Counted from the first letter of the stretch, positions 38,774 to 49,448 are shown. The stretch is DNA of 49,448 bases from an uncultured Candidatus Saccharibacteria bacterium (GCA_964391975.1 CAYMNZ010000003.1:1-49448), one strand, 5' to 3'. The notes: generated from the sequence alone by a model not told the origin. Program-made: numbers and translations.

Positions 38774-39553
38774 ATGTATATACTTCAGGCAATGGATGAG
38801 CTCGTCATAGGGGAGAAGAAGTACATTTCGTCGAAGAAGGCGGCAGAGCTTACGGGCTATGCCAAGGACTACATTGGTCAGCTTTGTAGAGAGGGGCGCG
38901 TAGAGGCACGCCTGGTGGGGCGTAGCTGGTACGTACTAGAGAGCTCAATCGCAGAACATCGCTTCGGGAAGCAGGAAGAAGTGGTAAAAGAACCAGAGGC
39001 TGAGGAGTCAGAAGTTGTAGAGGAGTCAGGATGGAAGTCCCCGAGGTACGTTACAGAGACGGTAGCAACGCTCCCAGAGCTTATAGAGCGCCCACGAGCA
39101 CCTCTACCTAGTAGCCTCAATCTTCTTGCAAGGGATAGAAATATTATCTCGGCTGCCGATATAGCTAGTAATCAGGCCGAAGTAGAGCTAGTTCCAATTT
39201 CTCGGCAAGAAGAGCCGGCTGAAGAACCTCCGGCTGCACCTCAAGGAGACGACGAAGAGGTCTCTGTTACTTTGCATAGGGTTGCACCTCACGTCGCTCC
39301 ACAAACCAAGGATATGGACGTCATTGTCCCTACACCTGCCCCAAGACGCCATCTAGAGACGCAAGTTGAGCCTAGAAAGATAAGAAAACAGGGAAGCCTG
39401 GTCAAATCATCCATAGTGATAGCTATTGCGCTCGTTGCAATCAGCATAATGCTCCTAGGAACCGGGGCAGCGGACCGTTACCTACTTCCAGCAGCACAAG
39501 AATCAGGTTTAATAAAATATCTCGGTGGGAAGAGTACCTATATTAAGCAGTAA
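38774..39553 (+). CDS. Tail-anchored membrane protein with N-terminal excisionase/MerR-type HTH-like module, acidic Pro-rich linker and C-terminal TM helix
   Basis: YISSKKAAELTGYAKDYIGQLCREGRVEARLVGRSWYVLESSI fits the HTH_17-type pattern (…GR.W.v….l). The linker is rich in E/P. TM SSIVIAIALVAISIMLLGTG lies near the C-terminus (~39405-39470). The start could instead be ATG 38792. Confidence 0.7.
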   Translation: MYILQAMDELVIGEKKYISSKKAAELTGYAKDYIGQLCREGRVEARLVGRSWYVLESSIAEHRFGKQEEVVKEPEAEESEVVEESGWKSPRYVTETVATLPELIERPRAPLPSSLNLLARDRNIISAADIASNQAEVELVPISRQEEPAEEPPAAPQGDDEEVSVTLHRVAPHVAPQTKDMDVIVPTPAPRRHLETQVEPRKIRKQGSLVKSSIVIAIALVAISIMLLGTGAADRYLLPAAQESGLIKYLGGKSTYIKQ

Positions 39554-39910: not shown

Positions 39911-42900
39911 ATGACTACTCCTCTCAACACCAATTTGATTTCCACGAAGCACGCTTCGGAAATTTCTGGATACCATCCGGACTACATTGGTCGACTCTGT
40001 CGGTCAGGAAAAATTAACTCAACTCAGTTCGGACGCAGCTGGCTCGTTGACCGCGATTCCCTTGTTGCATTTTGTAAGACTCAAGACCAAAAGAAAAAAG
40101 AAAGTGCCGAAGAGCTCTCCCGTATACGTGAACAAGAATACCAAGTTGCACGTAACGGTCACAGTGGTCACGTATCGCTCAAAACGACCTCTAGAACTCC
40201 TGCAGTGCGTAATCGGGGGAAGAGTATCCCAAGTCCTTTTTTCGATAATGCTGTCGCAACGCTTGTCGCGCTTGTTGTTGGAACAGCAAGCTTGTATGCA
40301 CTTCATTCTCCAGTCGGGCAGTTTGTTGGCACGAAAGCGCTTGAGGTCACGTCTACCACGGCGCTTGGTGTTCGAATCCTCGCGGCGGACCTTCCGGCGT
40401 GGCCGACCATTGATCGGCATACGACTGCTAATGCAACGGTTGGGCTGCAGGCTCCAATTTTTACAGGACCAATCGTTATTCCGTCAGTTGCACAAACCGA
40501 CGTAACTACCGGATATATAGCTGTATCGGATACCGACCTTCCTCTAGAAAACGATGTAAACACTAAAGGTCGGCTGCAAAGTATTCCAGTCGCAAGCCTT
40601 GTAGCTTCAGCGGGTAATGCTCTCGCTAATCCGCAAGGTACCCTTACGGATATATATATAGGTATAGGAGAAAGTGTTCATTCGCTCATAGTTGGGGGGC
40701 TCGAGACGTATACCAACGGATTGGCCGATGCGGGCAACCTTTGGATTGAGAGTGGCTACTCTGCACGTGACGCATTGTTCGCGCTCGGTGAGTCTGGACT
40801 CGCCGCAGAGCTCAGTTTAGGGAATGGCACTATCCGAACAGCAGAGGCTATTCTCGATGCACACGAAGTTGGAATCTATGGATTTATCGAGTCGACCCCA
40901 CAAATTTCTCTTGCGGTACTCAAAACTGCCCATGCGATAGGGGACACCGTGGCGTCTGCGGTTGCGTCGGTCCCCCCAAGCCTCGCCAGTGGGTACGATG
41001 GTGCAGTGGTGGGTTGGGTGGAAGGCTCATTAGGTGTCGCTTCCTCTATGGAGAGGAACCTCCTTGCTGCAGCCCACAACATCAACCAAGCAGGGGACTC
41101 CATCCGCACCGCGTACCTAGAGGCCATTAATGGCACTGGCTCGCTGGCCTACGAAAATGCAAATGGAGTCGTTTCGGGCACGCGTGCCACTGGTCAGGCG
41201 CTCGCGCTCGCATTCTCTGGGGAGGGGCCAGATTTTGTTGCATTGGTCACGCAGCAGCGCGATGTTTTCGGCTCAACAGTTCAAGAACGCTCAGACTCAC
41301 AAAGTGCTAGTGGTGCGCTTGCTGCAGCGACTGCAGAGGCTTCCATATATAAGGTGGGGGAAGATGTGGCGCTTTACACGTACGTCACCATCAACAACCT
41401 GTTCTACAAAGGACTCTCGGCCGTCGCTTCACTTTTCAAACAAGCACCAGTCGCGTTCGTACCTCTGCCACAAGGCGACACAACGTCAGCGGGCACGAGC
41501 TCCTCGTACTCTATTATTTCGCAGACGCCGGTTCAGAACATTGTTAACCAGATTACGATACAGGGTGTCACGTTTGATTATCTCGAGCGTCGTCTTCGAG
41601 AGACACGTTCAAGTATTCTCGATAGTCGTGCAATCTCGAACAACTCTTCGAATTCGAATAGCGGAGGCGGAGGGTCGGGAAGTGTGACATCAGTTGATGC
41701 GTCGGGTGGTACGACCGGGCTCACATTTACGGGCGGTCCAATTACTTCAACAGGAACACTCACACTTTCTGGCACACTCAATCTCATCAACGGAGGAACT
41801 GGACTCACTAGCTACACCGCAGGTGACATTCTCTATGCGGATGGCAGCGGCAATCTTGCAAAACTTCCAGTAGGCTCTGCAGGCCAAGTACTTAAAGTGA
41901 CCGCCGGATTCCCGGCATGGGGAGCTGACATTAGCGCAAGTGGTGGGGCTGGTGCATGGGCAACGACGACTGACAGTCTTGCTGTTTATCCCACTGACAC
42001 TTCGAATGTCGTCATTATTGGCAGTAACGCTACCTCAACAACTGGAAATATCTTTGAGGTGGTTGGCAACGCACTCTTCCGTGGAGCAATCACTACGTAC
42101 AACGTACTCACTGCATCGAATTTCACTTCCACCTCAACAACCGCAATCAACACGTTCCCGAATCTCTCGACAACCAACGCGACCTCGACTGGCTCTCTCT
42201 ATATCACACCGCTCGGCACTGCAGCCGGTACATTCCTTGCGGTTGATGCAAACGGTCGGGTGATTGCAACGACCTCACCACTTGCGGCAGCGGTGACGTC
42301 CATCGGTCCTGCAGGACAGACGGCAGACGGCCCAGCTGTCACGTTTGCCACCTCTTCAACCGCTTTCAATGGATTGACGCCTAATCTCACCATCACTGGC
42401 TCGGGTGATACCCTAACGTATACTTCCGCACTTTCCGGAACACTAGGCGTTGGTGGAGGAGGAACTGGCCAGACCACATTCACTTCAGGTCAGCTGCTCT
42501 ACGGCAACGGCACTGCTGCACTCTCTTCGGTCGCAACAACCTCTCTCACGCTCGCTTCTGAGTTCTCACACTCTGGCACTATTGGCTCTCTCATCGGCGG
42601 CGCAGCTGGAACTCTTTCTCTTACGAACAGCGGCGTCGCACTCACCAAACTCGCACAGATTGCTGCAAACTCGATCCTCGGCAATCTCACGGGAGCGACA
42701 GGGAACGTAACGGCAATTGCAACGTCTTCTCTCGGTATTGCTCTTAGTGATACGACTGGCACGCTCGCCGTGAATAGGGGAGGCACTGGCGCCGCAACGT
42801 TCACCAACAATCGTTTGCTAACCGGCAATGGTACGAGTGCGCTTGTCGATGAAGCGAACCTTACTTTTGATGGTTCGCTTCTGACCGTTACTGGAAACGC

Positions 42901-45900
42901 CTCAACGACCGGTATCAGTTCTTCTTACGCATCTTCAACGAATGCATTCTTCGGTAATCTCTCAATCGGTTCGCTCACAGGAATTCTTAAGGCAACCGCT
43001 GGTGTCGTTTCAACAGCAACTGCGGGCGTCGACTTCGAAAATCCACTCTCCTTTATATATCCACTTGTTCGTTCGGTAGATTCCATCTCTCTTGCCTTCG
43101 GCACCACAACTGCCAACAGCTGGAGCGCACACAATATATTTAGCTCACTTTTTGCGACAAACGCATCTACGACCAATGCAACGACGACCGGTACGCAATA
43201 CATAACGCCGCTCGGTACCGCAGCTGGCGCATTTTTGGCAGTTGATCCTACCGGAAAGGTTATTGCTACTAGTACGCCTTCTGGTGGTTCGGGCATCACT
43301 GCCATCGGTCCTACCGGACAAACCGCAGATGGCCCAACAGTCACTTTTGCGACTTCAACGAGTGCTAACAACGGCCTCACACCAAACCTTGTTATTACCG
43401 GTTCTGGCGACACTCTTACCTATACCTCCTCACTCTCCGGCACCCTCACGAATGCCGGTCTCGCAAACTCAACTGTTTCCTACGGAGGCGTAACACTCTC
43501 GCTCGGAGGAAGTGATGCCACTCCAGCCTTCGACCTCACTGATGCAACGAACCTTCCAATCGTTGCGGGCACCACTGGCACCCTCACGGTCGCGCGAGGC
43601 GGCACGGGCCAAACTTCGTTCACCTCAAGCCAACTTCTCTACGGCAATGGCACTGCTGCACTCTCGAGTGTTGCCACTACATCCCTCACGCTCGCTTCTG
43701 AGTTCTCGCACTCTGGCACTATCGGTTCCTTGATTGGTGGCGCTGCCGGCACACTCTCCCTTACAAATAATGGCGTTGCGCTCACGAAACTTGCGCAAAT
43801 CGCTGCCAACTCGATTCTCGGCAACCTGACCGGAGCAACAGGGGACGTTACCGCGATTGCGACCTCTTCCTTATATACAGGCACGCCTGGCCAGGTGTTG
43901 GCGAGAGTTGGCTCGACATGGGTAGGAGTTGCAACGACTACTGCAGGAACTGGCCTCACATATGACGGGACATCATTCAATGTCGATTCGTCGCAGTTCA
44001 CCCCAACCACTCGTACGCTCACAGTCGCGGGGACCGCAAACCAAATCACTTCTTCTGCAGGTGCCCAAGATCTTTCGGCCAACCGCACGTGGACGCTCTC
44101 GCTCCCATCCCATGTCGTTTTCCCTGGGAACTTCCAGGTAACGAACTCAACGACCACGAACGCGACAACGACCGCACTTGATGTGACGGGACTCCTTACC
44201 TTCGGTGGAGTGACAGGAAACAGTTGGGATGACTTCTGCACCACTATTACTGGTGGCTCAGGTCTCTGTGATGGCGTAGACAACACGGGTGGAGGTGCTG
44301 GGCTCGCGACGTCAACAGATATCGCAGATACTCAAATAATCTATGGCACCAGCGCATCGGACGTAGGATCGGAAGCGGTGTTTACCTACGACGACGCAAC
44401 TGACAGGCTCACGGTCATTAATGCCTCCACCACCAACATCAGTGCCTCCTATGCATCTTCAACCCAAGGATTCTTTGGCAACCTCTCGATAGGAAACCTT
44501 ACTGGATTCCTCAAGGCGACCGCGGGCGTTGTCTCCACTGCAACTATTGATCTCGTGAACGATGTCGGGTCTTCCATTCTTGCGGTGGTCAATGGCGGTA
44601 CAGGATGGGGCAATATCACCGCTAATGCGATTCTCTTGGGTAATGGCACGAGTAGACTTGCCACCACCTCTGCGGGAACGAATGGTCAGGTGCTCGCTCT
44701 TGTCGGAGGAGTGCCAACGTGGACCGCAACTACAACTGCAGGCACAGGCCTCACATACTCGGGGGGTGCATTCAACGTCAATACATCACAAAACATCGCT
44801 ACACTTTCCAACCTCACCTCAGATGGTGTCGTCTACACGTCAGGTGGCGCAGGTACGCTCAACGTAGATTCTGGGGCTCTTGATGTTGCGCGGGGAGGTA
44901 CAGGGCAGGCGACCTTCACCTCAAGCCAACTCCTCTACGGCAACGGCACATCTGCACTCTCATCAGTTGCCACAACCTCGCTCACACTTGCTTCTGAGTT
45001 TTCTCACTCAGGCACCATTGGTTCCTTAATAGGAGGAAGTGCAGGAACTCTCTCACTTACCAACAATGGTGTTGCACTTACAAAACTTGCGCAGATTGCC
45101 GCTAACTCCATTCTTGGAAACATAACTGGCGCAGCAGGGAACGTCACAGCTTTCGCGACTTCCTCGCTCGGGATTGCGTTGAGCGACACCACTGGCACGC
45201 TCGCAGTAGATAGGGGAGGCACTGGGGCGGCCACCTTCACGGACAACCGCATCCTCACCGGCAACGGTACAAGCGCACTTGTTGACGAAGCAAACCTCAC
45301 CTTCGATGGTTCTCTCCTTACGGTGACGGGAAACGCTTCGACCACGCAGCTCACGACCACGGGCAGTAGCTATCTTGCAACAATGGGGGGGAATGTGGGG
45401 GTTGGTACCACCTCGCCATGGGGCAGGTTCTCCATAAACAATTCGACGAATGACCCAGCTGGGCAGCCGCTGTTCGTGATCGCGAGCTCCACTGCGAGCG
45501 CGACAACAACACTCCTTAGCGTGAGAAATGACGGAGCGCTGCTCGTATTTGATGGAACCAGTAACGGTTCCACTAAATCGATTGGTTTCCAGAGCCAGCC
45601 TGACCTAGGCTTCTTCCGTCGTGCAGCGAATCGCATTACATTTGGGGAAAATACTGGCAATTTGGAGTTCGTGTCCTCTGGCACCAATGACGGCATACGA
45701 TTGGCTGGAGGAGCCGATATAATCTGGACCAGTACATCGCTTGCTTCAGGAACGGATGATACCTTTTTCCATCGTGTTGCTGCCGGTACTGTCGGTGTGG
45801 GTACTGCAAGTGCCGGCCAAGCGGGGTTGATGTCAGGCACCTTCGCCGCCGAACGTCTCGGCCTTGGTACTACCACTCCGTACGCCCAGCTCTCCATAGT

Positions 45901-48900
45901 CGCCACCTCAACAAACGGTGTAGGCGCACCAACCACTTTGTTCGCCATCGCATCGACCACGGCAGGGACGGCGACTTCAACGCTGTTCTCTATAGGAAAT
46001 ACAGGAACCATCACTACGGTTCTCGGCACCCCTGCCGGCACTTTCCTAGCTGCAGATCCGTCAGGTAACATCATCGCCACCACCTCTCCAAGCAGTGGGG
46101 GAATCACAGCGATCGGTCCTACTGGCCAGACCGCAGATGGCCCAACAGTCACGTTCGCAACTTCATCGACCGCCTTCAACGGCCTTACCCCAGGCCTCAC
46201 TATCACAGGCTCAGGAGACACACTGACTTTTGCTTCCGCACTCTCCGGCACACTCGACAACGCAGGACTTACAAACAGCACTGTCTCGTATGGTGGCGTC
46301 TCGCTCGCGCTTGGTGGAAGCGACGCCACTCCGGCATTCGACCTCACTGATGCAACGAACCTTCCAATCGTTGCGGGCACCACTGGCACGCTCACCGTCG
46401 CGCGAGGCGGCACAGGACAAACCACATTCACATCTGGTCAACTGCTCTACGGCAACGGTACAGCAGCGCTCTCGAGTGTTGCCACAACCTCTCTCACTCT
46501 CGCTTCTGAGTTCTCACACTCAGGAACTATTGGTTCCTTGATTGGCGGCGTCGCAGGAACGCTCTCGCTGACTAACAACGGCGTTGCACTCACCAAGCTC
46601 GCGCAGATTGCAGCGAACTCGATTCTTGGAAACGTAACTGGTGCAGCCGGGAACGTAACTGCAATTGCGACTTCATCGCTCGGCATCGCAATCTCTGACA
46701 CCACCGGCACCCTTGCTGTTGATAGGGGAGGCACTGGCGCAGCGACCTTCACCAACAACCGCGTCCTCACCGGTAACGGCACGAGCGCACTGGTTGATGA
46801 AGCGAACCTCACCTTCGACGGCACTATACTTTCAACGCCAAGCCTTTCCGTAGCCAATGCAACCAGCACCGACTCGCTCTACATCACGCCGCTTGGTACT
46901 GCGGCCGGCACCTTCCTTGCTGCAGACCCAACTGGACGCATCATCGCTACCACGACTCCTTCAAGTAGCGGCGGCATCACCGCCATCGGCCCGGCCGGAC
47001 AAACCGCAGATGGCCCGACGGTCACGTTTGCCACCTCAACAAGTGCCAACAATGGCCTCACCCCGAATCTTGTCATTACCGGTTCAGGTGACACTCTCAC
47101 GTATACCTCCTCTCTCTCGGGCACTCTCACGAACGCGGGTCTCGCAAACTCCACAGTCTCCTACGGCGGCGTCACTCTCTCTCTCGGCGGCTCAGATGCA
47201 ACTCCTGCCTTCAACCTCGTAGATGCCACGGGCCTCCCAATCTCAACCGGCGTCTCAGGACTCGGCACTGGGGTTGCCACAGCGCTCGGTGTCAACGTCG
47301 GCACCGCTGGATCGTTTGTTGTGAATGGTGGGGCACTTGGCACGCCGTCCTCGGGTACACTCACCAACGCCACGGGGCTCCCAATCTCGACCGGTGTTTC
47401 GGGTCTTGCGGCTGGTATCGCCACATGGCTAGGCACTCCGTCGTCCGCAAACCTCATAACTGCAGTCACCGACGAAACAGGATCAGGTGCCCTTGTCTTT
47501 GCAACGAGTCCATCCTTCACCACTCCAATTCTTGGCACTCCTACGTCAGCAACCCTCACCAATGCAACCGGCCTCCCAATCTCAACCGGCGTCTCGGGAC
47601 TGGGTACTGGTGTGGCAACGTTCCTCGGAACGCCGTCGAGCGCGAACCTAATTACCGCAGTTACTGACGAAACTGGCTCTGGCGCTCTTGTCTTCGGCAC
47701 GAGCCCTACTATTTCTGGTGCCACCCTCTCGGGAAACGTAAGTCTTGCAAATGCCACTTCCACTAACCACTTCGTCCAGACACTTTCCGCAAACACGGCG
47801 CGCTTCGGTCAGACCGCCACCTCCTCCTTCGCTTCCACTGGTGCACTTACGCTTGCAACCGCACTCACCGTTGCAAACGGAGGCACGGGCGCAACCACGC
47901 TCACTGGCATGCTCAAAGGCAACGGAACTAGCGCATTCACTGCCGGGGTAGATGGTACAGACTTCACGCTTACTAACGCCATCACATGTACTAACCAGGC
48001 CATTACTGCTGTCACCGCTGCAGGAGTATCGACCTGTTCATCTATTAACGACGCCTACTGGTCAGGCACCGACCTCTCGGTTGCCAACGGAGGCTCTGGC
48101 GCCTCAACGCTGACGGGTATTCTCCTTGGAAACGGCACTTCAGCCTTTACCGGACTTACCACCTCTGCGGGCATTAGTGGCGCGCTTTCGGACGAAACTG
48201 GCTCTGGCGCTCTCGTCTTTGCAACGAGTCCGTCGTTTACAACACCAGCACTCGGTACGCCATCTTCAGGAACTCTTACCAACGCAACGGGTCTTCCAAT
48301 CTCAACTGGTGTTTCGGGACTGGGCACTGGTGTCGCGACATTCCTCGGAACACCGTCGTCAGCGAACCTTCGTACCGCGCTTACAGACGAGACGGGCACA
48401 GGAGCTGCTGTATTCGCTGACGCTCCTACACTCACCAGTACGCTAACGCATACTGGACAGATATTCGCCAACACAAACGCTACCAACTTCGTGCTGACTG
48501 GTTTGACTGACATCTATGTAGATCTCGACAACGACAGTAACGGCACAAACTCATTTATTATTAGGAACGGATCCGACGTGGCTGCGCTCACCCTTACTGA
48601 GGGCGGAGTCCTCACCACGGGAGGTGATATCTCAGTCGGCGGCGGTACCGGGAAAATTACCGTCGGTACAATCGACCCGGTCTATACGATAGATGGGGTT
48701 AATTACGCAACGTACGTCGCTGGCATGGTGGGACAGAAGGAAGAGGTGACTGGCACCGCTGATGTCGTGACGCCGACGACGGCAGCTGACGGCAGTACGG
48801 GCTACTCCTACACGGTTGATTTTGACGAGGAGATGGCGGGCAACGACCTCTGGCTCTTCTCTCAGGCGTCACATCTACGCAAGAACATCGACAAGCTCGT

Positions 48901-49448
48901 CGTGCTCCTCTCAGCAGAAGGAGGGACTAAGGTGTGGTACAACGTCGACCGCGCAAACCGGAAAGTGTACTTCCTTTCCGATGTACCGACACGCGTTTCC
49001 TACCGCATGACGGCTCCTCGGTTCGACTACGAGACATGGACGAACTACAACCAGGATGCGGTTAACGGATTCGTACCACCGTACGATGACCTCGATGATT
49101 ACTTTGATGACAGTAGCGATATGTTCTCCTTCAGCAATACCAACCTGCTGTCAGGCACCACAACCCTTGCGGACCTTATCGAGCAGGTACCGGAAGACGA
49201 GGAGGGAGAGACGAAACCGTGGATGGGTGCACTTGCGGGCGTGAGCACTGGACTTAAGGAGGCGATGGACTCATTGACGGAGGTGACAATCAACGCCTTT
49301 GAAGGTGCGCAGTACTACGCTGACGGCATCTTCAAGCGCATCTTCGCGCAAGAAGTGCACACCGACCAGCTCTGTGTCTCCGACGAGACAGGAGAGACCT
49401 GCATCACGCGTGCACAGCTTAATGATCTGCTTGCGGGAGCAGCAGCCT
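39911..49448 (+). CDS. Giant membrane-anchored repeat protein, 3'-partial (>=3,179 codons): HTH-like module + TM helix + tail-fibre-like Thr/Gly/Ser/Asn-rich ectodomain. NOT in the supplied ORF track
   Basis: I translated frame 2 codon by codon from ATG 39911 to base 49447 and met no stop. The upstream in-frame stop is TAA 39863-39865, with no alternative start between. The protein repeats are coherent, and all listed ORFs in this span are out-of-frame or antisense. Confidence 0.9.
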   Translation, partial: MTTPLNTNLISTKHASEISGYHPDYIGRLCRSGKINSTQFGRSWLVDRDSLVAFCKTQDQKKKESAEELSRIREQEYQVARNGHSGHVSLKTTSRTPAVRNRGKSIPSPFFDNAVATLVALVVGTASLYALHSPVGQFVGTKALEVTSTTALGVRILAADLPAWPTIDRHTTANATVGLQAPIFTGPIVIPSVAQTDVTTGYIAVSDTDLPLENDVNTKGRLQSIPVASLVASAGNALANPQGTLTDIYIGIGESVHSLIVGGLETYTNGLADAGNLWIESGYSARDALFALGESGLAAELSLGNGTIRTAEAILDAHEVGIYGFIESTPQISLAVLKTAHAIGDTVASAVASVPPSLASGYDGAVVGWVEGSLGVASSMERNLLAAAHNINQAGDSIRTAYLEAINGTGSLAYENANGVVSGTRATGQALALAFSGEGPDFVALVTQQRDVFGSTVQERSDSQSASGALAAATAEASIYKVGEDVALYTYVTINNLFYKGLSAVASLFKQAPVAFVPLPQGDTTSAGTSSSYSIISQTPVQNIVNQITIQGVTFDYLERRLRETRSSILDSRAISNNSSNSNSGGGGSGSVTSVDASGGTTGLTFTGGPITSTGTLTLSGTLNLINGGTGLTSYTAGDILYADGSGNLAKLPVGSAGQVLKVTAGFPAWGADISASGGAGAWATTTDSLAVYPTDTSNVVIIGSNATSTTGNIFEVVGNALFRGAITTYNVLTASNFTSTSTTAINTFPNLSTTNATSTGSLYITPLGTAAGTFLAVDANGRVIATTSPLAAAVTSIGPAGQTADGPAVTFATSSTAFNGLTPNLTITGSGDTLTYTSALSGTLGVGGGGTGQTTFTSGQLLYGNGTAALSSVATTSLTLASEFSHSGTIGSLIGGAAGTLSLTNSGVALTKLAQIAANSILGNLTGATGNVTAIATSSLGIALSDTTGTLAVNRGGTGAATFTNNRLLTGNGTSALVDEANLTFDGSLLTVTGNASTTGISSSYASSTNAFFGNLSIGSLTGILKATAGVVSTATAGVDFENPLSFIYPLVRSVDSISLAFGTTTANSWSAHNIFSSLFATNASTTNATTTGTQYITPLGTAAGAFLAVDPTGKVIATSTPSGGSGITAIGPTGQTADGPTVTFATSTSANNGLTPNLVITGSGDTLTYTSSLSGTLTNAGLANSTVSYGGVTLSLGGSDATPAFDLTDATNLPIVAGTTGTLTVARGGTGQTSFTSSQLLYGNGTAALSSVATTSLTLASEFSHSGTIGSLIGGAAGTLSLTNNGVALTKLAQIAANSILGNLTGATGDVTAIATSSLYTGTPGQVLARVGSTWVGVATTTAGTGLTYDGTSFNVDSSQFTPTTRTLTVAGTANQITSSAGAQDLSANRTWTLSLPSHVVFPGNFQVTNSTTTNATTTALDVTGLLTFGGVTGNSWDDFCTTITGGSGLCDGVDNTGGGAGLATSTDIADTQIIYGTSASDVGSEAVFTYDDATDRLTVINASTTNISASYASSTQGFFGNLSIGNLTGFLKATAGVVSTATIDLVNDVGSSILAVVNGGTGWGNITANAILLGNGTSRLATTSAGTNGQVLALVGGVPTWTATTTAGTGLTYSGGAFNVNTSQNIATLSNLTSDGVVYTSGGAGTLNVDSGALDVARGGTGQATFTSSQLLYGNGTSALSSVATTSLTLASEFSHSGTIGSLIGGSAGTLSLTNNGVALTKLAQIAANSILGNITGAAGNVTAFATSSLGIALSDTTGTLAVDRGGTGAATFTDNRILTGNGTSALVDEANLTFDGSLLTVTGNASTTQLTTTGSSYLATMGGNVGVGTTSPWGRFSINNSTNDPAGQPLFVIASSTASATTTLLSVRNDGALLVFDGTSNGSTKSIGFQSQPDLGFFRRAANRITFGENTGNLEFVSSGTNDGIRLAGGADIIWTSTSLASGTDDTFFHRVAAGTVGVGTASAGQAGLMSGTFAAERLGLGTTTPYAQLSIVATSTNGVGAPTTLFAIASTTAGTATSTLFSIGNTGTITTVLGTPAGTFLAADPSGNIIATTSPSSGGITAIGPTGQTADGPTVTFATSSTAFNGLTPGLTITGSGDTLTFASALSGTLDNAGLTNSTVSYGGVSLALGGSDATPAFDLTDATNLPIVAGTTGTLTVARGGTGQTTFTSGQLLYGNGTAALSSVATTSLTLASEFSHSGTIGSLIGGVAGTLSLTNNGVALTKLAQIAANSILGNVTGAAGNVTAIATSSLGIAISDTTGTLAVDRGGTGAATFTNNRVLTGNGTSALVDEANLTFDGTILSTPSLSVANATSTDSLYITPLGTAAGTFLAADPTGRIIATTTPSSSGGITAIGPAGQTADGPTVTFATSTSANNGLTPNLVITGSGDTLTYTSSLSGTLTNAGLANSTVSYGGVTLSLGGSDATPAFNLVDATGLPISTGVSGLGTGVATALGVNVGTAGSFVVNGGALGTPSSGTLTNATGLPISTGVSGLAAGIATWLGTPSSANLITAVTDETGSGALVFATSPSFTTPILGTPTSATLTNATGLPISTGVSGLGTGVATFLGTPSSANLITAVTDETGSGALVFGTSPTISGATLSGNVSLANATSTNHFVQTLSANTARFGQTATSSFASTGALTLATALTVANGGTGATTLTGMLKGNGTSAFTAGVDGTDFTLTNAITCTNQAITAVTAAGVSTCSSINDAYWSGTDLSVANGGSGASTLTGILLGNGTSAFTGLTTSAGISGALSDETGSGALVFATSPSFTTPALGTPSSGTLTNATGLPISTGVSGLGTGVATFLGTPSSANLRTALTDETGTGAAVFADAPTLTSTLTHTGQIFANTNATNFVLTGLTDIYVDLDNDSNGTNSFIIRNGSDVAALTLTEGGVLTTGGDISVGGGTGKITVGTIDPVYTIDGVNYATYVAGMVGQKEEVTGTADVVTPTTAADGSTGYSYTVDFDEEMAGNDLWLFSQASHLRKNIDKLVVLLSAEGGTKVWYNVDRANRKVYFLSDVPTRVSYRMTAPRFDYETWTNYNQDAVNGFVPPYDDLDDYFDDSSDMFSFSNTNLLSGTTTLADLIEQVPEDEEGETKPWMGALAGVSTGLKEAMDSLTEVTINAFEGAQYYADGIFKRIFAQEVHTDQLCVSDETGETCITRAQLNDLLAGAAA
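39935..40063 (+). other. HTH-like module of the giant protein, paralogous to 38822..38950
   Basis: LISTKHASEISGYHPDYIGRLCRSGKINSTQFGRSWLVDRDSL versus YISSKKAAELTGYAKDYIGQLCREGRVEARLVGRSWYVLESSI gives 21/43 identical residues, ungapped (counted by hand). Confidence 0.6.
40250..40309 (+). other. Predicted single transmembrane helix of the giant protein
   Basis: AVATLVALVVGTASLYAL is preceded by a basic segment (RNRGKS), which implies an N-in / C-out topology. Confidence 0.6.
42200..47220 (+). repeat. In-frame composite super-repeats inside the giant gene (modules A, A', B, D, E)
   Basis: Module A (YITPLGTAAGTFLAVD…ITAIGPxGQTADGPxVTFATS…ITGSGDTLTY) occurs at about 42200, 43199, 46027 and 46877. 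Module B (…RGGTGQTxFTSxQLLYGNGTAALSSVATTSLTLASEFSHSGTIGSLIGG…LTKLAQIAANSILGN…) occurs at about 42448, 43583, 44878 and 46390. Module D (YASSTxxFFGNLSIGxLTGxLKATAGVVSTAT) occurs at about 42925 and 44445. Confidence 0.85.
47221..48420 (+). repeat. Second repeat family in the giant gene (~65-aa unit ATGLPISTGVSGLGTGVATFLGTPSSANLITAVTDETGSGALVFATSPSFTTPxLGTPSSGTLTN)
   Basis: Copies begin at about 47227, 47371, 47566 and 48286, with a partial copy at about 48170. The spacing 47371 to 47566 is 195 nt. Confidence 0.8.

Follow-up and report, generated by a model that had tools for sequence, protein, structure and literature searches.

In repeat-rich bacterial surface adhesins, such as the staphylococcal and streptococcal wall proteins and those of the Bap/RTX type, identity of the repeats at the protein level usually goes with identity at the DNA level and with copy-number polymorphism. 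In polyubiquitin, silent divergence between units of identical protein has been read either as slow concerted evolution (Sharp and Li, 1987) or as purifying selection together with birth-and-death of copies (Nei, Rogozin and Piontkivska, 2000); PMC10457151 reviews the two views. Large OD1/Parcubacteria proteins (>1500 aa) with beta-rich domains and internal repeats have been proposed to be adhesins (Nelson and Stegen, 2015; PMC4508563). Here we analyze a giant gene in a stretch of 49,448 nt (GCA_964391975.1, CAYMNZ010000003.1:1-49448; hereafter the window) from an uncultured Parcubacteria/Patescibacteria bacterium of the Candidate Phyla Radiation (CPR) living in microbial mats. The product of the gene, P0030, has 3273 amino acids (aa; the full-length protein was recovered, and the gene call on the 742-kb source contig agrees), and its modular part consists of four copies each of the modules A, B and C together with minor two-copy segments. 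The copies of a module encode similar protein with largely randomized silent sites, which is the textbook signature of old duplications under purifying selection and not of a special anti-recombination mechanism. The gene adds to the known cases of this evolutionary pattern, here in an uncharacterized CPR protein family.

The repeats share with polyubiquitin and histone repeats a near-identical protein, heavy silent differences, a tendency of copies to resemble each other more within a genome than across species, turnover of copy number and the same competing explanations. Unlike polyubiquitin, which is a head-to-tail array cleaved to release monomers, they are modules of three kinds dispersed over a single giant structural protein of a bacterium; their protein identity is 89–94%, not 100%; and an A copy has cross-species orthology while the B core clusters by genome. 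Module A therefore fits birth-and-death, and the B core fits either birth-and-death or slow concerted evolution. Like the Bap/RTX-type adhesins, the protein is very long and built of repeated modules, but the DNA identity is only 70–79%, no tandem array is detected and no copy-number variant is seen in the dominant population. The large OD1 proteins come from the same phylum-level group and are likewise giant, internally repeated and devoid of curated domains, and the relatives of the window gene include Parcubacteria bacterium C7867-001 from that same study (PMC4508563). However, repeat evolution was not analyzed there, and the modules, the N-terminus resembling a helix-turn-helix (HTH) and the C-terminal domain of P0030 are not described in Pfam or NCBIfam.

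The initial annotation had compared 30 codons of the first two B modules (42539–42628 and 43679–43768) and counted 18 differences in 90 nucleotides with none in 30 amino acids. This count was reproduced exactly, both segments encoding TSLTLASEFSHSGTIGSLIGGAAGTLSLTN, and 17 of the 18 differences fall on third codon positions (probability of at least 17 of 18 by chance, 9.6e-8). The other two B copies, said to behave in the same way, do so: their segments start at 44975 and 46487 (earlier given as about 46490), and the six pairings differ by 16–21 nucleotides and 0–1 amino acids. Codon-wise alignment of all A and B copies with estimation of dN/dS, the ratio of nonsynonymous to synonymous divergence (omega), showed that the sampled segment is representative. 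The four B modules have an amino acid identity of 0.83–0.93 (0.89–0.94 in the core) at a nucleotide identity of 0.70–0.79 over the full alignments, with proportions of synonymous (pS) and nonsynonymous (pN) differences of 0.59–0.73 and 0.04–0.12, respectively, and an omega of 0.03–0.06 by Nei–Gojobori counting (NG86). In the four A modules, the amino acid identity is 0.71–0.83, the nucleotide identity 0.65–0.75, pS 0.56–0.78, pN 0.12–0.21 and omega 0.11–0.13 (pairs with computable dS), and the four C modules show the same pattern. For B1-B4, the contrast between synonymous and nonsynonymous change has a Fisher P of 1e-35. Across the A and B copies, then, nonsynonymous changes are far rarer than synonymous ones, and the copies are not near-identical as DNA.

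Strong purifying selection on each copy, which the initial annotation had proposed, is borne out by the omega values of 0.03–0.13 and by strain variation, which is mostly synonymous. The run data were 2018 short-read metagenome runs, kept as contigs, and the source of the window is a microbial-mat metagenome of the Joint Genome Institute (JGI). Two runs, X8 and X10, contain a co-occurring strain that is 5–10% diverged from the window. Among its 40 best-supported variants, 33 are synonymous and seven nonsynonymous, and between 43024 and 48253 the same set holds 21 synonymous and 0 nonsynonymous variants. The observation of this strain also concerns the window positions 47836–49142.

Modules were defined by chunked self-comparison of P0030 and by alignments (Table 1), which confirmed that A and B occur four times each. 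Copies 2–4 of A carry a 45-aa tail; every B copy has a 97-aa core, followed in copies 1, 3 and 4 by a tail of up to ~80 aa. The four C modules cover aa 2429–2860 (47195–48490) and lie partly outside the range considered earlier. The three kinds of module are dispersed, not arranged head-to-tail. Tandem Repeats Finder (TRF) detected no tandem array in the giant gene, because the modules are dispersed and diverged, and only seven exact direct repeats of at least 20 nt occur in it, one of 53 nt and six of 22–26 nt.

The description of the silent divergence as saturated is nearly right. Four-fold degenerate sites are 30–45% identical against the 25.6% of full saturation, and the ratio of transitions to transversions at these sites is ~1:1 to 1:2. 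Where two copies have the same amino acid, the codon is identical in 0.29–0.52 of cases, compared with ~0.32 expected from the codon usage of the gene itself. The random level is reached in A1-A2, A1-A4, C2-C3 and C2-C4, while residual similarity (z = +3 to +5) is seen in A2-A3, A2-A4 and B3-B4. The silent sites are ~75–100% randomized.

The copies had been regarded as old, and module A supports this, since A3 has a specific orthologue across a species split that is saturated at silent sites. This orthologue lies on L001, a 1.9-kb contig with one A-B unit, which also supplies a single B core. Its A module has 93% amino acid identity to A3 and 76–83% to A1, A2 and A4, compared with 75–83% between A3 and A1, A2 or A4, and pS between A3 and L001 is 0.68; the A copies had therefore separated before that species split. 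Such orthology of individual copies across species is seen for module A and was not shown for the B cores. The four B cores of the window are separated from the six of its syntenic orthologue L052 by 23 fixed differences, with 10 and 6 columns variable within the respective genomes; when compared with L001 and the outgroups, columns 25, 61 and 62 hold derived residues common to all four window cores. Copies of the B core are more alike within a genome than between genomes, which is not so for module A, and residues specific to a genome require either conversion or lineage-specific amplification. The pN of the B core is ~0.2 between species and 0.03–0.07 within the window, and the window cores coalesce at roughly one-sixth to one-third of the depth of the species pair of window and L052. 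For GatB of the same two genomes, pN is 0.295 (57% amino acid identity), and thus the B core evolves more slowly than this housekeeping enzyme.

The related genomes, to which the initial annotation had pointed for comparison, show that high protein identity combined with high silent divergence forms a continuum (pS 0.26–0.75). The B cores of L052 have 90–97% amino acid identity between copies, pS of 0.26–0.46 and identical runs of up to 89 nt. The B-like modules of L003 and L004 are at 88–96% with pS of 0.48–0.67, those of L008 at 92% with pS of 0.36, and an internal duplication in L055 at 78% with pS of 0.75; at the nucleotide level, repeats in relatives reach 85–91% identity. The syntenic orthologues have 2,375, 3,273 and 4,338 aa, their module content is non-collinear, and they contain four, six or more, and zero B cores. 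L055 (6347–13471 of a 742,741-nt contig, with GatB at 70% amino acid identity to the window) was examined to resolve the history of the B core; its gene has A modules, the B tail and a C module, a different C-terminus and no B core. Overall, this looks like birth-and-death of modules with a range of ages, with the window gene at the old end.

The absence of gene conversion, which had been concluded from the sampled segment, does not stand. Between A2 and A3 there is a patch of 105 nt at 91% identity against a background of ~70%, including the exact 53-nt repeat. Although A3 as a whole module is closest to the L001 copy, this patch is closest to A2, and a patch so discordant with orthology points to homogenization within the genome, i.e., conversion after the species split. 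The 53-nt tract was also considered as a conserved nucleotide element and rejected, since the orthologous tract of L001 encodes nearly the same peptide at a nucleotide identity of just 76–78%. The genome-specific residues of the B cores are a second point against the earlier claim, unless they stem from lineage-specific amplification. In L052, stretches of 24 and 29 codons without any difference occur in two pairs (P <= 0.001). Furthermore, L003 (9983–10317) and L004 (5493–5827), which are different contigs of one metagenome-assembled genome (MAG) with giant paralogous genes (>5,600 aa and 4,862 aa), share a tract of 335 nt at 99.1% identity in modules that are otherwise 73–85% identical; this tract stems either from recent conversion between the two genes or from overlap in the assembly. 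Gene conversion between copies is real but rare.

We consider that these are old duplications under strong purifying selection, with neutral silent drift and rare conversion and no need for active selection on codon divergence, and give this reading a probability of about 0.8. On this reading, the modules were long ago duplicated and shuffled within the giant gene, as shown by the non-collinear content of the orthologues and the cross-species orthologue of A3. Strong purifying selection holds the peptide of each copy, and the silent sites drifted neutrally to 75–100% of saturation. Once exact identity between copies had fallen to ~20–25 nt, homologous recombination would have become rare and the array would have been passively stabilized, because RecA-type recombination is known to depend on length. 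Rare conversion persists, with the one A2/A3 tract in the window and longer tracts in relatives, and the B cores were either amplified or homogenized in this lineage before silent divergence accumulated.

Several points weigh against this reading. dS is at or near saturation, so the duplications cannot be dated or ordered against speciation by dS, and the dN/dS values come from NG86 counting alone and not from a maximum-likelihood codon model. The margin by which B cores cluster within the genome is small (6–11 differences, compared with 9–13 to L001), and late duplication and post-speciation conversion of these cores are not separable on these data. In addition, a passive stabilization below the length threshold of recombination is presumed for this particular organism.

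It is possible, with a chance clearly short of even, that slow concerted evolution, as in the polyubiquitin model of Sharp and Li, is what chiefly keeps the B cores alike as protein: several cores older than the split from L001 would have been homogenized by conversion after it, and their silent divergence would have accrued since the last homogenization. The shared derived residues and the 23 fixed differences from L052 agree with this, as do the demonstrable conversion tracts in the window and L052 and the finding that the adjacent A module predates the L001 split whereas the B cores coalesce within the genome. However, copying of B cores after the split, independently of A, would give the same pattern, and B3 indeed has no upstream A module; moreover, only a single B core of L001 is available, and the margin amounts to a few residues in 97.

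An unlikely further reading is that the copies of the B core, perhaps with those of A and C, have to stay identical within one protein since they cooperate, for instance as equivalent registers in an oligomeric fibre or by multivalent binding to one host ligand. Selection would then promote the transfer of every accepted amino acid change to all copies through rare conversion, a co-evolution at the protein level that would yield genome-specific B cores, and silent divergence would be kept since it guards a long-lived array against collapse by recombination. If true, this would be a bacterial case of separate selection on protein homogeneity and on DNA heterogeneity.

Selection against long identical tracts, which would recombine and delete modules, had been put forward as one possible cause. 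In its strong form, codons would have been scrambled faster or further than by neutral drift. The shortness of the exact repeats (22–26 nt in six of seven), the lack of a copy-number variant in the dominant population across runs and a silent divergence which, relative to nonsynonymous divergence, is ~2x higher in the B cores of the window than in those of L052 could be taken in its favor. However, none of 18 module pairs has a codon identity below the null of synonymous recoding, and none of the 18 has a longest identical run below that of recoding simulations; every pair lies at or above random recoding, and thus there is no sign of selection for DNA divergence beyond drift. Moreover, the 53-nt exact tract persists in the window, and the orthologous and paralogous genes of relatives tolerate the 85–91% identical repeats, the 89-nt exact runs and the 335-nt tract at 99% described above. 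Survivorship of arrays that had already diverged fits the same data without directional selection, and we regard active divergence as very unlikely.

Although mis-assembly is common in genes rich in repeats, and such genes contain the ends of many related contigs, an artefact (mis-assembly, a strain chimaera or a non-coding low-complexity region mimicking a conserved protein) has a negligible chance, given six independent contigs from different samples that are 100% identical to the locus (one 99.99%), unitigs at an even depth of 59–62x whose sole break is at the 53-nt repeat, where the depth doubles, an open frame of 9.5 kb inside the window, the concentration of differences at third positions and the existence of syntenic orthologues.

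Apart from the 53-nt repeat, the gene has no repeat of sufficient length to break 31-mer unitigs; three of the short-read contigs terminate at 43418–43558. Since the same-locus contigs of other samples are 100% identical, they add no strain-level divergence. No variant in module number was seen in the dominant population in short-read contigs across runs. A weak joint between 47397 and 48248 is seen in one X8 contig; it leaves out 850 nt, a number not divisible by 3, and one of its sides has only 26 nt. This could be a C-module rearrangement in the diverged strain or an alignment artefact.

Table 1. Features of the giant gene, with coordinates counted from the first nucleotide of the window.
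Feature	Position	Strand	Remarks
Giant gene	39911..49448	+	single open frame from ATG 39911; continues past window end
N-terminal helix-turn-helix-like domain (aa 10-54)	39938..40072	+	Pfam HTH_17 E = 1.2e-4, 22.8 bits
Hydrophobic segment AVATLVALVVGTASLYAL, putative single membrane anchor	40250..40303	+	read from translation
Module A copy 1 (aa 755-849)	42173..42457	+	without A tail
Module B copy 1 (aa 845-1020)	42443..42970	+	97-aa core and ~80-aa tail
Module A copy 2 (aa 1088-1229)	43172..43597	+	with tail
Conversion-like tract, A2 side	43511..43615	+	includes exact 53-nt run 43529-43581; short-read contigs and unitigs break here at doubled depth
Module B copy 2 (aa 1225-1321)	43583..43873	+	core alone
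Module B copy 3 (aa 1657-1832)	44879..45406	+	core and tail
Module A copy 3 (aa 2028-2165)	45992..46405	+	with tail; specific orthologue in L001
Conversion-like tract, A3 side	46319..46423	+	includes exact 53-nt run 46337-46389
Module B copy 4 (aa 2161-2300)	46391..46810	+	core and partial tail
Module A copy 4 (aa 2315-2452)	46853..47266	+	tail merges into module C
Module C copy 1	47195..47374	+	partial
Module C copy 2	47339..47569	+	63-75% aa identity to phage structural-module proteins
Module C copy 3	47534..47770	+	self-comparison/alignment and phage-protein matches
Module C copy 4	48254..48490	+	
Conserved C-terminal globular domain	48578..49300	+	confidently modelled core ~48725-49027

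The genes upstream are chromosomal housekeeping genes (a Wzy-like ligase, MurB, SecA, Obg and GatB), and in three species the giant gene has SecA, Obg and GatB at its flanks. Homologues of the giant protein derive from Parcubacteria/Patescibacteria bins. Contigs with Patescibacteria-type modules (L001, L014, L032, L034, L036 and L043-L045) carry MAG labels such as Polynucleobacter, Gammaproteobacteria, Bacteroidetes, Pseudobdellovibrio and others, and several MAGs labelled 'Saccharibacteria' resemble Parcubacteria relatives; these module-bearing contigs and MAGs are likely mis-binned or mislabelled. The GC skew in the giant gene (window 42000–48000) is -0.16 to -0.20, whereas elsewhere it is ~0 to +0.1, and the gene contains long, spurious-looking antisense open reading frames, e.g., one of 353 aa on the minus strand at 45370–46431. 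The two features probably result from the codon composition, which is rich in Thr, Ser and Ala.

From its start, P0030 consists of the HTH-like N-terminus, the hydrophobic segment, the modular part rich in Thr, Ser, Gly and Ala, the conserved C-terminal domain and a Gly/Asp-rich tail. Its most probable role is that of an extracellular fibre or adhesin anchored in the membrane, a reading based on the phage links of its modules and on the adhesin proposal for large OD1 proteins. The hydrophobic segment may serve as a single membrane anchor; its Kyte-Doolittle mean is <1.8 in the window protein, and that of the equivalent segment in the orthologue P0031 (aa 103–125) is >1.8. The HTH-like start is kept in the orthologues P0031, L052 and L055 despite sub-threshold profile scores, and a ~450-aa region towards the N-terminus of the giant protein is not conserved in L052. 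A DNA-binding-like domain of cytoplasmic type is odd on a giant extracellular protein, and its function may be anchoring or sorting, not regulation. The adjoining upstream gene (38774–39553, 259 aa) encodes the same HTH-like N-terminus with a strong C-terminal transmembrane helix at aa ~207–230. A low-complexity Gly/Asp-rich tail, GGGDTGGGDSGGDTGGG..., closes P0030 (aa 3180–3273, beyond the window end), whereas the end of P0031 is made up of a linker rich in Pro and a domain of the type Bact_surface_Ig-like (PF16403).

Pfam and NCBIfam searches with segments of the giant protein and six other family members left both the modules and these family members uncovered. With a profile of the B module, 582 cluster representatives are retrieved at E <= 1e-3, and many of these are giant proteins. 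Several modules resemble proteins of phages. Module C (47375–47764) matches phage proteins with 63–75% amino acid identity over ~113 aa (E = 2e-33 to 3e-40); these are unannotated ('hypothetical proteins') and are encoded among the structural genes of Pseudomonas phage PfAn1 and of uncultured podoviruses from spring water, in whose records module C is present 2–3 times. The module occurs both in proteins of the structural modules of phages and in a chromosomal gene of a CPR bacterium. The A tail (46208–46420), with the motif STVSYGG..LGGSDATPAFDLTDATNLP, is 58% identical (E = 5e-11) to a baseplate-wedge protein of Synechococcus phage S-SKS1, and the motif also occurs in dozens of marine metagenome contigs at 57–79% identity. 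The B core gave weak matches to PHROG tail-fibre families (E about 2e-3). A likeness to the repeat proteins of phage tail fibres and virions would lie in module C, the A tail and, weakly, the B core; unlike in phages, the gene is chromosomal, tblastn of the B core against phage sequences found no match, and the AlphaFold2 (AF2) and Foldseek analyses did not confirm a fibre fold.

The C-terminal domain occurs in 62 proteins of Patescibacteria, of which many have just 200–490 aa and one has the N-methylation motif of type IV pilins (PF07963). No Pfam family covers the domain, and searching PDB by sequence with the B-module and C-terminal profiles returned nothing. In its AF2 model, the confidence score pLDDT (predicted local distance difference test) is >90 at residues ~50–150 of the query, and Foldseek gave no significant match, the best being the receptor-binding domain of the cyanophage Pam1 tailspike (E = 0.07, template modelling score, TM, 0.21).

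Some observations count against the proposed function and architecture of P0030. The AF2 monomer model of the A3-B4 unit is poor (pLDDT 59.6, predicted TM score, pTM, 0.26), and no RNA runs holding the giant gene were found. At the N-terminus, the HTH_17 match is under the Pfam cut-off (22.8 vs 27 bits), as is the match to the NCBIfam excisionase-family model TIGR01764 under its own (19.4 vs 28.8 bits, E = 1e-3).

The giant gene provides a quantified bacterial case, from the little-studied CPR/Patescibacteria, of protein-identical repeats with near-random silent sites. In the debate between birth-and-death and concerted evolution, both sides apply here, to different modules of one gene. The divergence between copies also accounts for the good assembly of this giant repeat gene from short reads, where the genes of relatives break. 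The modules belong to an uncurated family with ~580 cluster representatives whose rate of evolution is lower than that of a housekeeping enzyme, and those shared with structural proteins of phages are candidates for host-attachment machinery in episymbiotic bacteria.

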